Shown one piece after another: positions 5,220 to 44,638 of a DNA stretch of 64,000 nucleotides. The notes under the pieces are model-generated. The model was not told the origin of the DNA and made no database searches. It saw only the letters and a list, made by a program, of their open reading frames with translations. This DNA comes from Eubacteriales bacterium (lineage in GTDB: Bacteria; Bacillota; Clostridia; Oscillospirales; JAAYXM01). The position numbers were made by a program, and so were the translations under genes. The stretch lies in assembly GCA_045595365.1 (NCBI GenBank), contig JAZOAI010000035.1, forward strand, positions 5,049 through 69,048, given 5' to 3'. Every line of letters begins with the position of its first letter. Position 1 is the first letter of the stretch.

Positions 5220-7317
5220 ACCGGACTATGTATTTTTTGAGATAATCGGGAAGGAAAGCTTCGTTAATTATGAGTGAATCGCCCGGAATCCACATATCCT
5301 TGAAGTTTGCGCCGGAGTAGATAAAGACGTAGTAGTTTTTGCCTTTCTTTTCTTCGCCGCGGGAGCTTTCAAACATTGTTTCGACAGCTTCTCTTCCATC
5401 CTTGCTGTAAATGTGAACACAGTCGTCACCCGGGATTCTGAATTCCTTTCTCGGGAGTGTTTCTCCCTCGTAGTGGTAAAACTCTCCGTCAAACTCTATC
5501 GGATTCTTACAGAGCCACACGGCGTTTGAAGTGCGAAGGACAAGCTCCTCGTAATAGCCCTTTTCGACAAGGAAGGCAAAGGTGTTCTTGAAGTTCTTGT
5601 TTATTGCAAGATCAAATGTTTTTAAGATGTTATCATCAGGATAATTCCGATTGAGAATCTCTTCGGCTTCAGTTTCCTTGAATATCTTAAGCTCGCGGTT
5701 TTCCTTTGCCGTAACGGAGATGTCTATACGAAGATGAAGAAGTGAGTTCTCGTAGGCAAGCTCCTTGTACGAAAGCTCGGAAATGTCTTTCTCCACCGCA
5801 CGCATAAGAGCAACCGCATCTTCATCACGGATAACCTCGCGCCAGCTCATTCCCGACGAATCAAAATAAACATTCGCCTCGTTTACATTTTCGAGATTCA
5901 GCCAATGAAGCCCCGTTACCTTCTGCTTATACTCCCCGTTTTCAAACATTTTGGACATCGCTTCGTCAAAAATCTCTTTTTCTGCAATATACTGACGCCT
6001 TAAGGTTTTTCCGCTCTTCAGCTTGTATGTGACATAGAAGATTCTTCCCGCTTCAAAAATGCGGTCGGTTCTGCGCGGGATATTTTCAGTTATCTTCATA
6101 TGCGTTTGGCGGACATTTTCAATAAGCTTCGCATCAGAAACGAGGACATTGTCAAAGCGGTAGTTTTCGTGAACAGCCGCACTTTCAATCTCCTGAGACT
6201 CAGGGATTCTCGTTTCATAACCGAATACCGAGGTGTTTGCGACGAACAAAAGCACCGCTGCACTTGCCGCAAAGAAAACAAGAAGGCCTTTGTACGATTT
6301 AAAAACCCTGAAGCTTTTGTTTATGAGCATCTCACAGGCAAAATAGACTATCGCGGCGGCAACTGCAACCTCAATATACACAAAAGCAGGGCTTATGTTG
6401 CTCTCTGACAGAATTGCAAAGACGAAAATTGAGATTGCCGCAGTTGTCATATACTTAAATATCGGGCGAAAAATCGAGAATGCGCACACATCTCCCGAAA
6501 GCTCAATCTTTCTCACGCGGTAGAGAAGATATCCGACAAGATATAACGCGAGGCTCACTGCGATATATACCCAGAACATCCCCTGGGCAAACATATTCGT
6601 CAAAAAAGCGCGGTAGTTCACAGCACTCGCAAACAGCCATACTATCGGCGTGTTTGTCATTATTTTATTGGAAATGAAGTTGGTGTCGGTCATAAAGCCG
6701 TAGAGAAACTCCTCGCTCATAACTGCGATGAAGAGCGCAACTATCATCGGCAGGATATGGGCAAAGGCATTGAGGCCGATGTGTACCGCCGCGTTACCTG
6801 TAAGGAACGCTGTTGCAGTTGCAACCGAGAACATAATAAAGATGACCGACAAATTCAGAAACATCCAGTATATTACCGAAGACGGCGGCATAACTGCGCG
6901 GTAATCCGTAAAGCTCATTATGAGAAGCACAAGTGCATTTACCACAACAGGAATAGCCATGAGTACAAATCCCGAAACGATATCTGAAGCATAGTTCTCA
7001 CAGCGGCTTACCGGAAGCGAATGAACAAAAACGCTTTGCCTTGCCGAATGGACATTGTTAAAAATCAGCACTGCAGCAACCGTAGGCACTGCAATCGCAA
7101 AAAGCATCGGGAAGATTATGTAGGAGTCTGACAGAATTACGGGAACTTTCTGCGTCTCAGGAAGAAAACGGTTTGTTAAATATTCCATATCCTGCATAAG
7201 GAGAACAAACGGAACCGTAAAGAAGAGAAAGATTCCGTACAAAAAGCTTCCCCATTTGAAACGTTTTAAATTGTTCAGGAATATCGCGCGGCTAAAAAAT
7301 GACTTCTTTGAGATCAT
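5218..7317 (-). CDS. Large ABC-transporter permease-like membrane protein (multi-TM N-terminal ~370 aa plus ~330-aa non-membrane C-terminal domain)
   Basis: 699 aa. The N-terminal half is dominated by hydrophobic helices. It overlaps the upstream ABC ATPase gene by 26 nt and is third in a GntR-ATPase-permease operon. The C-terminal domain is unrecognised. Confidence 0.65.
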   Translation of the reverse strand: MISKKSFFSRAIFLNNLKRFKWGSFLYGIFLFFTVPFVLLMQDMEYLTNRFLPETQKVPVILSDSYIIFPMLFAIAVPTVAAVLIFNNVHSARQSVFVHSLPVSRCENYASDIVSGFVLMAIPVVVNALVLLIMSFTDYRAVMPPSSVIYWMFLNLSVIFIMFSVATATAFLTGNAAVHIGLNAFAHILPMIVALFIAVMSEEFLYGFMTDTNFISNKIMTNTPIVWLFASAVNYRAFLTNMFAQGMFWVYIAVSLALYLVGYLLYRVRKIELSGDVCAFSIFRPIFKYMTTAAISIFVFAILSESNISPAFVYIEVAVAAAIVYFACEMLINKSFRVFKSYKGLLVFFAASAAVLLFVANTSVFGYETRIPESQEIESAAVHENYRFDNVLVSDAKLIENVRQTHMKITENIPRRTDRIFEAGRIFYVTYKLKSGKTLRRQYIAEKEIFDEAMSKMFENGEYKQKVTGLHWLNLENVNEANVYFDSSGMSWREVIRDEDAVALMRAVEKDISELSYKELAYENSLLHLRIDISVTAKENRELKIFKETEAEEILNRNYPDDNILKTFDLAINKNFKNTFAFLVEKGYYEELVLRTSNAVWLCKNPIEFDGEFYHYEGETLPRKEFRIPGDDCVHIYSKDGREAVETMFESSRGEEKKGKNYYVFIYSGANFKDMWIPGDSLIINEAFLPDYLKKYIVR

Positions 7318-8188
7318 AACCCAAACCTCCCAGCTCGTAGATAAATACTTCCTCCAGCGTAAGGCTTACCTTATCAAAAACCAACGGAGAAAAGCCTTTT
7401 GCTTTTTCTTCAAACTCTTTGAAATCTCCTTTTAAAATGACTGTATATACAGACCCCATTTTTGACAAATGCAAAATCTCATCACTCATAAGCTCTTCGG
7501 GGAATTCTCCGCCAAATGCCGCCTGAATCTTGCAGATGTTGCCCTTTAAATCCTCAAGCGGCTTTTCGAGAACAAGCTTCCCTTTATGTATTATTCCAAC
7601 ATAGTCGCAGATGTCCTCAAGCTCACGCAGATTGTGAGAAGAAACAAGAACCGTCATTCCTCTTTCTGCAACATCGGATATGATAACGTTCATAATCTGC
7701 TTTCTCATAACGGGGTCAAGCCCGTCAAGCGGCTCATCAAGAATAAGTATCTCAGGGAGACACGACAGAACAAGGCGGAAAGCGACCTGTTTTTTCATTC
7801 CCTTTGAAAGCCGCCTTATTTGCCTGTTTTCATCTATCGGGAGAATTTTTGAAAGCTTTTCATACCGCTCACGGCTGAAGTTTTTATATAACCGCTCATA
7901 CAGCCGTGCCATTTCCTTTGTTGAGAAGCTTGGATAGAAATACCACTCGTCATTTATGGAAAGAACCCTCTGCTTAAGAGCCGTATTCTCCCAGACATCT
8001 TCTCCGTCTATCCTGACACTTCCGCAATCAGAGCGGAAAGCCCCGGTCAGATGATTGATAATAGTCGTCTTCCCGGCACCGTTCGGGCCGACAAGCCCGT
8101 ATATGCTTCCTTTTGGCACGGTCATTTCAAGCCCGTCAAGCGCGCGGAACGCACCAAAGGTTTTTACAACGTCTCTTACCTCAATCAT
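7292..8188 (-). CDS. ABC transporter ATP-binding protein
   Basis: Walker A GPNGAGKTT, signature-like LSKGMKKQ, Walker B ILILDEP, H-loop SSHNL. 298 aa. Confidence 0.9.
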   Translation of the reverse strand: MIEVRDVVKTFGAFRALDGLEMTVPKGSIYGLVGPNGAGKTTIINHLTGAFRSDCGSVRIDGEDVWENTALKQRVLSINDEWYFYPSFSTKEMARLYERLYKNFSRERYEKLSKILPIDENRQIRRLSKGMKKQVAFRLVLSCLPEILILDEPLDGLDPVMRKQIMNVIISDVAERGMTVLVSSHNLRELEDICDYVGIIHKGKLVLEKPLEDLKGNICKIQAAFGGEFPEELMSDEILHLSKMGSVYTVILKGDFKEFEEKAKGFSPLVFDKVSLTLEEVFIYELGGLGYDLKEVIF

Positions 8189-8562: not shown

Positions 8563-8578
8563 GTTATCACCTCTCAAC

Positions 8579-8607
8579 TGTATTATCTGTATTAATACAG
8601 TTGTATT
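8579..8607. promoter_or_regulatory. Probable YtrA-type operator (autoregulation)
   Basis: Perfect palindrome ctgtattaatacag (8587-8600) flanked by further TGTATT half-sites at 8579-8584 and 8602-8607. It lies between the -10 box and the RBS of the GntR gene. Confidence 0.6.
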
Positions 8608-8633
8608 GTAGCATTATTTACCTTCTCTGTCAA
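8605..8633 (-). promoter_or_regulatory. SigA promoter of the GntR-ABC operon
   Basis: The - strand reads ttgaca, a 17-nt spacer, then tacaat, immediately upstream of the operator palindrome. Confidence 0.7.
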
Positions 8634-8725
8634 TAGTTTCGTGAAAATTTTTCAAGTTATAAAAGTAAAGACTTTTCCTTGTGGCCTCGAATGACAATCC
8701 TCGGAATTGTCAAATCCGGGCGGAC

Positions 8726-9136
8726 CTACTTTTGATTGCAAAAGTAGCAAAACAAAGGGGGGATTTCGATTTTCCCCCCCCCTTTAACCCCCTTGAAACG
8801 ACTCAGGGGCTACCGCCCCCGAGACCCATCAATTTTGCCCCTTTGAAAGCTGTTCCGGGTCAAACAGCATATTTTTATCGTAGGGTTCGGCGGTTCCCGA
8901 CGAACCGATTATTTTTTTCGCGGAACGACACGCAGGTCGTTCCCTACAATCCCACCTCATCCACCGCAAGCGAGACCGAGGGGTGTAGGGGACATTCACG
9001 AATGTCCCGCGGGCGATTCTTGAATCGCCCCTACGGTTTATTATCCACCTCATTCTGTAGGGTACGATGCCCACATCGTACCGCTTTAAATATAGCGGGC
9101 GGATGTAGGCATCCGCCCCTGCGTTTTCCACCTCAT
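8726..9136. repeat. Array of short GC-rich hairpins with GTAGGG/CCCTAC flanks interleaved with three CCACCTCAT copies
   Basis: Perfect hairpins at 8726-8747, 8922-8943, 8989-9008, 9011-9030, 9061-9082 and 9097-9118. CCACCTCAT occurs at 8952, 9045 and 9128. No credible CDS is present. See findings. Confidence 0.75.
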
Positions 9137-9298
9137 CCGAGTTGCTTCGCAACCCACCTGTCTCGCTGCGGCTCGGTCACGTCGCGGGTCTGACAGCCCA
9201 CCGGACTGTCATTCAACACCGCGCCGACACTTCGCTACCCTCAAGGGAAAGGCGGGATTTAATTAAGCCGGGCAATGTGTCGAAGCCCCGTGAATTTG

Positions 9299-9327
9299 TT
9301 GACTTCAGGATGTAATTTTGCTATGAT
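9299..9327 (+). promoter_or_regulatory. Candidate SigA promoter for the AT-rich ORF
   Basis: ttgact (9299-9304), a 17-nt spacer ending in TGc, then tatgat (9322-9327). Confidence 0.55.
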
Positions 9328-9374: not shown

Positions 9375-9902
9375 ATGAAAAAGAAATTGATAATTGTTTT
9401 TGTTGTAGTAATTCTTTTGATTTCTTTATTGCCTTTTCCGCAAAACATTGTGAGAACATATTATGGAGTGAACACAGAAAACGGTAAAAAGGTTGATATA
9501 GCCCTTGATATGAAATATTTGAGATTTCTGCTCCTAAAAGATAAAATGAGTGGAACAATCACCGTAAAAACCGAAACGGAAACATTTACTTATGGAGAAC
9601 ATTTGCATTATACAGGACAATCGCATTCAGAAAATAATGCTGGTGATTATGCACATAATTTTAATGGTTGGTACTACAATGATATGATGTATATGAAAAA
9701 ATACGAAAATGGTACAGCTTCAAAAATGCCCATTGGATTTGAAGGTCTTTTAGTTCATATAAGTTCTGGCTTTGATAAAATACTGATATTTCATAACGCA
9801 AATGAGGAAATTGGAACCCGAGAAGACAGTAGATATATTGGAAGTGCAGAACAAAATCAATTAGAGGAAGCCAAGGAGTATTTTGCAGGATACTATGATT
9901 AA
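9375..9902 (+). CDS. Hypothetical secreted or membrane-anchored protein (175 aa), AT-rich gene
   Basis: N-terminal MKKKLIIVFVVVILLISLL signal/anchor, aaggag RBS region upstream, own promoter and terminator. No family recognised. Confidence 0.6.
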   Translation: MKKKLIIVFVVVILLISLLPFPQNIVRTYYGVNTENGKKVDIALDMKYLRFLLLKDKMSGTITVKTETETFTYGEHLHYTGQSHSENNAGDYAHNFNGWYYNDMMYMKKYENGTASKMPIGFEGLLVHISSGFDKILIFHNANEEIGTREDSRYIGSAEQNQLEEAKEYFAGYYD

Positions 9903-9920
9903 AAAGTAATATGATATAGA

Positions 9921-9950
9921 ATGGGCAAGTTGCAAACCTTGCCCATTTTT
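9921..9950 (+). terminator. Intrinsic terminator
   Basis: atgggcaag (9921-9929) / cttgcccat (9938-9946) followed by tttt. Confidence 0.8.
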
Positions 9951-11710: not shown

Positions 11711-12841
11711 ATGACAACCACTGAACAAAAGAAAAAACATTTTCAGATTATTCCTTTCATAAAACAAAATGCTGTTATGTTTATTGCTCTCATTGCAGCA
11801 ATTATAACGTGCTTTTTTGTACCCGTAGACCGCGAGTATCTCGGCTACTTTGACTTTAAAACGCTCACCTGCCTCTTCTGCGTTCTTGCCGTCGTATGTG
11901 CGCTCCGCAACATCTGTTTTTTCTACGTGCTGGCGCAAAGAGTTGTAGTTCTTTTCAAAAACGCGAGAATGAGCATTCTTGCCCTTGTCTATATCACCTT
12001 TATCGGCTCTATGCTTATCGCAAACGATATGGCTCTTCTTACCTTCCTCCCTCTCGGATATTTTGTTCTCACGGAAACAGGCAAGGAAAAGTATATGGCA
12101 TTCACCTTCATTATGCAGAATATCGCAGCAAACCTCGGCGGTATGCTTACTCCTTTCGGAAACCCGCAAAACCTCTATCTTTATACAAAATTCAATATTC
12201 CAAACCTTGAGTTTATGGGGATTATGGCACTTCCCTTCATTCTTTCGATTGCGCTCATAACTCTCTGCTGTTTTGTTTTCGTGAAGCCCGAAAAGCTTTT
12301 CATATCCGGCAACGAGGTTGTTCTCGACCGCAAAAAGACGGTTCTTTATCTTCTCCTTTTCGCGCTTTCAATAGCAATCGTCTTTCGCGGGATTTCCTAT
12401 CTGGTCGGGCTCGTTGTAATTCCGCTTTTTCTCCTCTATGCTGACCGCCCAGCTCTCCGGGCAGTTGATTATCCGCTTCTCCTCACCTTTGTTTTCTTCT
12501 TTATATTCGCAGGGAATATGGCAAGGATTGATATTGTTCACAAGCTTTTCTCTTATCTCCTTGAGAAGAACACGTTTCTTTTTTCAATCCTCTCTTGCCA
12601 GTTTATGAGTAATGTCCCCTCGGCGATCTTACTGTCGCAGTTTACAGAGGATTATGCAAGCCTTCTCCGAGGCGTGAATATCGGAGGCGTCGGAACGCTC
12701 ATCTCCTCGCTGGCAAGCCTTATAACCTTCAGAACGTATGTGCATCACAACCCCGGAAAAACTAAAAGCTATATAATAAAATTCTCCCTTTTTAACTTTG
12801 CTTTTCTCCTTATCCTTACCGGGTTTATGCTTATAATATAA
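11711..12841 (+). CDS. Anion/ion permease of the ArsB/NhaD (CitMHS/SLC13-like) superfamily
   Basis: 376 aa and polytopic. The motif TPFGNPQNLYLY is characteristic of this superfamily. Confidence 0.65.
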   Translation: MTTTEQKKKHFQIIPFIKQNAVMFIALIAAIITCFFVPVDREYLGYFDFKTLTCLFCVLAVVCALRNICFFYVLAQRVVVLFKNARMSILALVYITFIGSMLIANDMALLTFLPLGYFVLTETGKEKYMAFTFIMQNIAANLGGMLTPFGNPQNLYLYTKFNIPNLEFMGIMALPFILSIALITLCCFVFVKPEKLFISGNEVVLDRKKTVLYLLLFALSIAIVFRGISYLVGLVVIPLFLLYADRPALRAVDYPLLLTFVFFFIFAGNMARIDIVHKLFSYLLEKNTFLFSILSCQFMSNVPSAILLSQFTEDYASLLRGVNIGGVGTLISSLASLITFRTYVHHNPGKTKSYIIKFSLFNFAFLLILTGFMLII

Positions 12842-44602: not shown

Positions 44603-44616
44603 CTTAAAATACCCGC

Positions 44617-44638
44617 GGGGCGATGAAGACATCGCCCC
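44617..44638. repeat. Solitary GC hairpin of the same build as the 8.7-9.1 kb array
   Basis: ggggcgatg (44617-44625), loop aaga, catcgcccc (44630-44638). No U-run follows. Confidence 0.6.

Follow-up and report, generated by a model that had tools for sequence, protein, structure and literature searches.

Probable mosaic cluster of GTAG-headed extragenic palindromes in a variable intergenic region of an Oscillospirales genome

The window examined here is a 64-kb stretch of DNA (64,000 nucleotides; contig JAZOAI010000035.1, positions 5,049 to 69,048, assembly GCA_045595365.1) of an Eubacteriales bacterium of the order Oscillospirales. At 8690-9260 it holds a region with no credible gene, which sits between a minus-strand GntR/YtrA-like operon with ATP-binding cassette (ABC) genes and a plus-strand AT-rich open reading frame (ORF), ORF175. 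The region is occupied by an array of GC-rich hairpins that resemble repetitive extragenic palindromes (REPs) and by a copy of a second dispersed repeat, here called B. The coordinates of the features are collected in Table 1.

Six perfect hairpins were found in the region, at 8726-8747, 8922-8943, 8989-9008, 9011-9030, 9061-9082 and 9097-9118, exactly where an earlier note, made from the sequence alone, had placed them. The other landmarks named in that note were also present: a G6/C9 hairpin (arms 8754-8762 and 8777-8785), a weaker and imperfect hairpin at 8884-8906, the flanks GTAGGG (8880, 8985 and 9057) and CCCTAC (8942 and 9029), three copies of CCACCTCAT, and frames open on both strands (a 170-aa plus-strand ORF and a 107-aa minus-strand ORF). 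When hairpins with a stem of at least 8 bp and a loop of 2-8 nt were counted, 6 of the 27 perfect hairpins of the window fell within these 571 nt, and dinucleotide shuffles of the region gave a mean of 0.073 perfect hairpins and a maximum of 2 (2000 shuffles). The DNA fold of 8860-9140 had an energy of -57.7 kcal/mol (z = -5.8). The three copies of CCACCTCAT were the only ones in the window; 0.21 were expected, and none of 100 shuffles gave three. The GC content of the array was 54.6%, that of the window 48.6% and that of ORF175 31.8%. The product of the 170-aa ORF matched nothing except itself among 5.8 billion proteins, and neither this ORF nor the 107-aa ORF should be annotated as a gene. 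The region had no BLAST match in the PLSDB plasmids, and self-BLAST detected no further copies of it in the rest of the window. Exact-protein look-ups of the ABC ATPase and of P0001 returned no record.

Table 1. Features of the region and of related elements in other loci (loci are cited by L number; +, - and. give the strand)
Feature	Position	Strand	Description
GntR/YtrA-like regulator	8185-8562/8577	-	Followed by ABC ATPase and DUF6449 permease
Promoter-like site of GntR/ABC operon	8605-8633	-	TTGACA-17-TACAAT
Partial inverted copy of B hairpin 9185-9214	8689-8718	-	70% over 30 nt; left edge of lineage-specific insert
Two further palindromes	8726-8785	.	CTACTTTTG/CAAAAGTAG and AAAGGGGGG/CCCCCCTTT; without external GTAG head; no match in any fetched locus
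REP unit 1	8880-8906	+	gtag-GGTTCGGCGG-ttc-CCGACGAACC; 10-bp stem with one mismatch
REP unit 2	8922-8947	-	gtag-GGAACGAC-ctgcgt-GTCGTTCC; doublet A with unit 1, gap 15 nt
CCACCTCAT copy 1	8952-8960	+	Followed by partial inverted B sequence at 8963-8984
REP unit 3	8985-9008	+	gtag-GGGACATTC-ac-GAATGTCCC; ATTCnnGAAT core type
REP unit 4	9011-9034	-	gtag-GGGCGATTC-aa-GAATCGCCC; doublet B with unit 3, gap 2 nt (gc)
CCACCTCAT copy 2	9045-9053	+	Isolated fragment
REP unit 5	9057-9082	+	gtag-GGTACGATG-ccca-CATCGTACC; GATGCCCACATC core type, found widely in Oscillospirales and inside RAYT genes
REP unit 6	9097-9122	-	gcag-GGGCGGATG-ccta-CATCCGCCC; mutated head (GCAG); doublet C with unit 5, gap 14 nt
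B element	9128-9255	+	Second dispersed repeat; includes CCACCTCAT copy 3
Promoter-like site of ORF 9375-9902	9299-9327	+	TTGACT-17-TATGAT
AT-rich ORF (ORF175, 175 aa)	9375-9902	+	No Pfam family
B copy elsewhere	L001 100-185		Alignment A1
B copy elsewhere	L002 12110-12000	-	Alignment A1
~105-nt element, examples	L054 1227-1331, 6834-6939; L078 365-469; L084 2768-2872; L114 7318-7423		Either orientation, several genomes
RAYT-like gene with internal REP pair	L038 1572-2081	-
RAYT-like gene with internal REP pair	L101 1932-2408	+
RAYT-like gene with internal REP pair	L031 ~7033-7539	-
RAYT-like gene with internal REP pair	L250 10001-10453
RAYT-like gene with internal REP pair	L251 10001-10477

The core of the array, 8880-9122, consists of six GC hairpins of the form GTAG, 8- to 10-bp stem, 2- to 6-nt loop, stem. 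Their orientations alternate strictly, beginning with plus, so that they form three inverted doublets (GTAG-hairpin...hairpin-CTAC), here named A, B and C and separated internally by the gaps given in Table 1. A published search rule for REPs asks for GT[AG]G at 0-2 nt from a fully paired stem of 7-20 bp with a loop of 2-5 nt (Quentin 2018, PMC6006769). In the array, GTAG lies at 0 nt from the stem in five of the six units, the stems of units 2-6 are perfect and 8-9 bp long, and the loops measure 2, 2, 3, 4, 4 and 6 nt, the longest of them, that of unit 2, being 1 nt over the limit. The inverted arms (25-30 nt) are complementary to 80% in units 3/4 and to 73% in units 5/6. For these two pairs the earlier description of the stems as unrelated did not hold: the stems are related, and their core types recur in other genomes. 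As a REPIN (a REP doublet forming hairpins), defined by two similar inverted REPs that can fold together into a single long hairpin, doublet A qualifies only partly, its units being dissimilar. A 20-mer of unit 6 has an exact copy in the viral contigs L002 and L004.

Elsewhere in the window, at 44615-44638, an isolated intergenic GC hairpin, GGGGCGATG-aaga-CATCGCCCC, has a stem like those of units 4-6 but lacks the GTAG head; it may represent either a REP that has degenerated or a terminator.

The earlier note had divided the region into three tandem modules, each starting with CCACCTCAT. The region is better divided into the three inverted doublets, and CCACCTCAT comes after each of them. Origin by simple tandem duplication of a module of ~90 nt was not supported; the hairpins of the modules are of different subtypes and the only common part is the CCACCTCAT tail. 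Nor does CCACCTCAT belong with the hairpins, as had been proposed: it is the 5' module of the separate repeat family B. The possibilities that it is a component of the REP module or a target for insertions were likewise rejected: of its nine copies in the loci fetched with the REP pattern, only two lie within 150 nt of a GTAG unit.

Family B came to light through a single 68-nt match between the region and the INPHARED phages, on a fecal phage contig. Further matches were obtained in viral contigs L002 and L003 and in at least 120 metagenome stretches, mainly from the human gut and many of them at contig ends. B is a modular repeat of ~130 nt that ends in the tail CCCCYCARGGGGAAGGC. In the window its order is CCACCTCATCCG, a variable hairpin, CACCTGTCTCGCTGCGGCTCGGTC, the covarying hairpin TGACAGCCC/acc/GGACTGTCA within CGCGG..CCGCG, and CCCTCAAGGGAAAGGC. 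The alignment gives the order hairpin, ACACCTCATCCG, variable hairpin, CACCTGTCTCCCTGCGGGTCGGTC..., hairpin TGACAGGCC/acc/GGCCTGTCA, CCCCYCARGGGGAAGGC; the last of these hairpins has one covarying pair, and the closing stem CGCGG...CCGCG covaries. In 24 of 90 unique copies CACCTCATCC is found 53-59 nt upstream of the B anchor, and in the window copy it is found at -58. The B copies matched no Rfam family, and no enzyme associated with them was identified. Because inverted fragments of B occur at 8689-8718 and 8963-8984, the region is a mosaic of at least two repeat families. Further recurring modules were observed in mosaics of the same kind in L002, on the minus strand at 7340-7600 and 11880-12000: one is GATTGCCACG-hairpin-CTCGCAATGAC, the other a short element, ACACCTCATCCG-hairpin-CACCTTCCCCTCGAGGGGAAGGC, beside GTAG/CTAC hairpins.

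The distribution of the hairpins was studied with the pattern GTAGGGNNNGATGCCYACATCNNNCC, the core of units 5 and 6 with six stem positions left free, for which ~0.5 chance matches were expected. Scanned over one genome per species, it matched at least 120 genome stretches, mostly of Oscillospirales. The main labels were Oscillospiraceae, Ruminococcus/Ruminococcaceae (including R. flavefaciens isolates), Acutalibacteraceae, Faecousia, Flavonifractor and Clostridia bacterium, with a few stray ones. Among the 167 matches listed, the free stem triplets were all paired in 158, against ~9 expected by chance, and the paired free positions took more than 20 different triplets. This agrees with the proposal in the earlier note that the elements are selected for structure, with free stem sequences, and are not decayed coding DNA. 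Of the same listed matches, 112 lay between greedily chosen ORFs, and the majority of the remainder lay at ORF edges.

The DNA fetched around these matches amounted to 870 kb and included no locus from the species of the window. In it, the 4-mer found directly 5' of maximal perfect hairpins was GTAG in 250 cases, the runner-up being AAAA with 37. The fetched loci contained 293 units of GTAG plus hairpin, compared with 17 after block-shuffling, and 136 of the GTAG hairpins fall outside the selecting pattern. Neighboring units were most commonly in the order plus, minus. Doublets built as in the window, including the 2-nt gc gap and mixed subtypes, occur in L040, L068 and L100. The ATTCnnGAAT core of units 3/4 was found in six other genomes with varying stems. 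Neither of the refuting outcomes named in the earlier note was obtained: no Rfam family matched, and elements of these types also occur outside this locus. Matches on several contigs of a single genome were seen in other Oscillospirales metagenome-assembled genomes, for example on five contigs of CAKUNY01. A commoner element of ~105 nt, resembling a REPIN or a MITE (miniature inverted-repeat transposable element), was also observed in the fetched loci; it consists of two inverted REPs of the GATGCCCACATC type around a conserved spacer of 53-57 nt (..TTCGAATTCGCC..TTTCCGTAAAAACGG..).

Another conceivable origin of the hairpins is that they serve a different system as recombination sites (integron attC-like sites, or the termini of IS200/IS605 insertion sequences or of MITEs), or that they are chance palindromes or decayed coding sequence. 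Like the array, attC sites conserve structure over sequence, and imperfect inverted copies bracket the B element. However, attC sites carry GTTRRRY core sites and imperfect stems 60-140 nt long, and the array was judged unlike them. The GTAG head and perfect 8- to 9-bp stems match the REP rule instead, no cassette ORFs are present, the 170-aa ORF has no homologue, and the shuffles exclude chance. An origin of this kind is highly improbable.

A search for REP-associated tyrosine transposases (RAYTs) was made with phmmer over all ORFs of the fetched loci, using an E. coli YafM sequence as the query. Three RAYT-like ORFs were detected, in L038, L101 and L031. Their best NCBIfam family was NF047646, REP-associated tyrosine transposase (E values of 1e-18, 5e-13 and 7e-20, respectively), and Pfam Y1_Tnp matched weakly. 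The family to which they belong comprises 1396 clusters (E <=1e-10), one of them named 'REP element-mobilizing transposase RayT' by JGI. A search of PDB with a single RAYT sequence gave marginal matches (E 0.05-0.13). For a profile of 30 members, in which His78, His80 and Tyr142 are invariant, the best solved structure was E. coli TnpA_REP (PDB 4ER8; E 3.7e-8), with the HuH motif aligned. In its HuH motif, its catalytic Tyr and its likeness to TnpA_REP, not to IS200 TnpA, the family agrees with the definition of a RAYT.

The genes of this family carry the REP in their own coding sequence. Read in frame, the REP pattern encodes V-G-x-D-A-H-I-x-P, and its reverse complement encodes G-x-M-W-A-S-x-P-T. 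Both peptides were present in 89 of the best 120 of the 1396 clusters, and one of them was present in 16 more; some homologues have two to four tandem in-frame copies (P0141, P0144 and P0155). At the DNA level, perfect inverted REP pairs flank the HuH-coding segment in L038, L101, L031, L250 and L251, and in the gene of L031 the REPs occupy the same two positions of the protein but are of another subtype. Because the same REP lies in frame inside RAYT genes, the REP type of the window is physically tied to the RAYT family. The earlier note had mentioned that similar units surface as spurious hypothetical proteins in gut Clostridia; the in-frame V-G-x-D-A-H-I-x-P peptide fits this remark.

Relative to each of the two divergent promoter-like sites the array is upstream, and therefore no identified promoter transcribes it. 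This position argues against the structured RNA that the earlier note had offered as one alternative and, more generally, against hairpins that act as RNA, whether as a structured non-coding RNA, as terminators or as mRNA-stabilizing stem-loops for the GntR/ABC operon or the AT-rich ORF. The strength of the fold and the covariation of the stems across genomes would suit such a role, E. coli REPs are reported to stabilize mRNA, and four terminator-like matches, representing three distinct hairpins, were obtained in the region against 1.2 expected. The units are, however, equally frequent in both orientations, and most lack a T tract. Intrinsic terminators were tried as an explanation and rejected, weak T-rich tails being present only at 8849-8868, at 8891-8907 and in unit 6. 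Rfam gave no match in the region or in eight repeat-rich loci, where nothing was reported on REP or B copies. At gathering thresholds the only hit in the window was a signal recognition particle (SRP) RNA away from the region, and a permissive scan of the region returned McaS, RT-8, isrP and Clostridiales-2 as sub-threshold chance matches (best 22.9 bits against a cut-off of 42 bits). The array is also absent from orthologous loci with the same flanking operon. A function as RNA is thus very unlikely. The SRP RNA is of the bacterial large type (RF01854; 62274-62541, plus strand, 187 bits).

Five orthologous loci (L125 to L129) were available for comparison, with permease identities of 81, 76, 68, 68 and 59%; a metagenome scan with the permease found no relatives. 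All five keep the gene for a flavin adenine dinucleotide (FAD) protein and the GntR-ABC-permease operon. Upstream of the GntR gene they have 80-150 nt and, toward the FAD-protein gene, nothing more or other genes. Neither the array nor ORF175 was found in them. Because of this absence the array is lineage-specific DNA in a variable spot. The absence from all five loci also makes ORF175 probably acquired DNA. This ORF has a hydrophobic N-terminus, and a hairpin at 9922-9945 lies past its stop codon. On the other side of the array, a palindrome, CTGTATTATCTGTATTAATACAG, is located at 8578-8600, where it separates the -10 element from the start of the GntR-like gene; the orthologous loci share its conserved core, TAATACAG, and the palindrome is probably the operator of the GntR-like regulator.

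The same comparison speaks to the idea that the array is selected by the host as a protein-binding or topological element (for gyrase, integration host factor or nucleoid proteins, a role proposed for the bacterial interspersed mosaic elements, or BIMEs, of E. coli) or as an insulator between divergent promoters, its REP ancestry being incidental. The location, exactly between two divergent promoters, favors such an element, and binding of several host proteins has been reported for BIMEs (Nunvar 2010). Yet in relatives that have the same divergent GntR promoter an intergenic region of 80-150 nt with no hairpins is sufficient, and the spacing and phasing between the units are not conserved. 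We regard this explanation as unlikely.

Taken together, 8880-9122 is likely to be a BIME-like cluster of six GTAG-tagged REPs in three inverted doublets, adjoined by a B copy at 9128-9255. The earlier note had listed a REP/BIME-like repeat among its candidates, and it is this candidate that the data favor. The array agrees with the structural definition of REPs in its GTAG heads, its short perfect stems with loops and the alternation of its units; its sequence types are dispersed; the stems covary; the matches are mostly extragenic; a RAYT-like family carries the same REP; and the array is absent from orthologous loci.

Several observations weigh against this interpretation. REPs are expected in many dispersed copies (usually more than 100), and the window has one REP cluster only in its 64 kb, with no GTAG- or GCAG-headed GC hairpin elsewhere in it. 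No GTAG hairpin was found in ~58 kb of the syntenic relatives L125 to L129 either. The six units differ from one another, so that there is no sign of recent amplification at the locus. Two of them deviate from the pattern, unit 6 in its GCAG head and unit 1 in a mismatched stem position. Doublets often combine two hairpins of different types, which sets them apart from textbook REPINs. The left 190 nt (8690-8880) and the triple CCACCTCAT fall outside the REP model. As for the enzyme, the window contains no RAYT-like ORF, the NF047646 scores of the RAYT-like ORFs (49-71 bits) are below the curated equivalog cut-off of 80 bits, and within 10 kb of the RAYT genes of L250 and L251 no flanking REPs were found, so that the classical REPtron layout is not seen there. 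Finally, selection by an enzyme is not proved by covariation alone when the element is a DNA palindrome.

A mechanism for a cluster of REPs can be proposed by analogy with the systems of E. coli, S. maltophilia and Marinomonas, namely mobilization by a RAYT. REPs are non-autonomous DNA elements; in single-stranded form each becomes a short GC hairpin that has GTAG on its 5' side. The RAYT (TnpA_REP), a transposase of the HUH-Y1 type, binds and cleaves the folded REP and in this way spreads the elements. What the enzyme reads is GTAG, the loop and the shape of the fold, not the letters of the stem, and the stems are therefore free to drift as long as both arms change together, which would leave the same architecture with divergent sequences. 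Most likely the cluster is selfish DNA or a relic, located at a variable point between genes, and not a device for the flanking genes, and it was possibly imported, perhaps together with B.

It is conceivable, though on balance doubtful, that a REP-RAYT system spans the whole order Oscillospirales, with the head and loop core GTAGGG...GATGCCCACATC constant across genera and in mosaics with B, a second and likewise undescribed repeat family found across the gut. The in-frame REP pair would explain such constancy. With an inverted REP pair around the HuH motif, the transposase gene would carry its own substrate, and the embedded pair would tie the REP sequence to coding constraint and might permit self-regulation or self-excision.

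Elements of this kind are already known: GTAG-tagged REPs, BIMEs, RAYTs and REPs within tnpA_REP genes. Targeted literature searches on REP/RAYT in Firmicutes, Clostridia, Oscillospiraceae and Ruminococcus returned only rep-PCR typing and unrelated papers, with no description of the present family in Clostridia or Oscillospirales. Clostridia are named in the survey of Quentin (2018, PMC6006769) only for subclass 1.1, of the IS200 type. The head/loop core common to several genera is the most interesting lead, and it concerns the family, not the locus; at the locus the consequence is modest, a variable and probably selfish insert. REP/RAYT systems have been worked out almost wholly in Proteobacteria, and their known host range is extended by a family that occurs in Oscillospirales of the gut and rumen. 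Recurrent spurious 'hypothetical proteins' in Clostridia, with motifs such as VGxDAHIxP and GPMWASAPT, are accounted for by this family. That many B copies, and REP matches in some cases, lie at contig ends suggests that the repeats break metagenome assemblies. A fixed head and loop with free stems also make the family a natural case for studying hairpin recognition by HUH-Y1 enzymes.

Among known systems, the GTAG-tagged superfamily is defined by GTAG at one end of a palindromic repeat of 20-40 bp (Di Nocera 2013, PMC3733652), a description with which the units of the window comply; Firmicutes and Clostridia are absent from the main text of that survey. The E. coli REPs and BIMEs share with the window the mosaic cluster and the alternating orientation, the latter being reported for BIMEs in general (Nunvar 2010). 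E. coli TnpA_REP (YafM) is also the enzyme whose solved structure best matches the RAYT-like family profile. In the E. coli REPs the stems are longer and contain a bulge that activity requires (PMC8266576), whereas the stems of the window are short. In E. coli the REPs flank the RAYT gene, whereas here they lie inside it.

The group 3 REPs and REPINs of Stenotrophomonas, Pseudomonas and Marinomonas (Bertels & Rainey 2011; Nunvar 2010; PMC8266576) resemble the window in that GTAG stands immediately 5' of a GC palindrome that is short and perfect. REP_Sm, for example, is a short perfect palindrome with an 8-bp stem and a 3-nt loop (Corneloup 2021, PMC8266576). Inverted doublets, extragenic location and an HUH-Y1 enzyme are further shared traits, as is the greater weight of GTAG and of loop positions than of stem letters. 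In group 3 REPs certain loop positions are strictly required and GTAG guides the choice of the cleavage site, while exchange of the whole stem for its complement affects cleavage only moderately (Corneloup 2021, PMC8266576). Recognition of this sort would keep head and loop constant and let the stems covary, which is the pattern observed here. The host clade differs, being Clostridia (Oscillospirales) here and Proteobacteria for group 3. The hairpins of a doublet here often differ in subtype, unlike those of group 3 REPINs, and the copy number in the genome of the window looks low. Furthermore, the head and loop core is common to many genera here, whereas REPs have been described as species-specific (Quentin 2018, PMC6006769).

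In the layout of the gene, the closest counterpart is TnpA_REP subclass 2.4 (PMC6006769), in which in-frame REPs likewise lie inside the gene and form a 'double-foot' GTAG...CTAC. That subclass is reported to be abundant in Cyanobacteria and Bacteroidetes, and the likeness noted here is one of gene layout. The arrangement of the pair also differs from that of subclass 2.4, since in the RAYT-like genes described here one REP stands before the HuH motif and the other after it.

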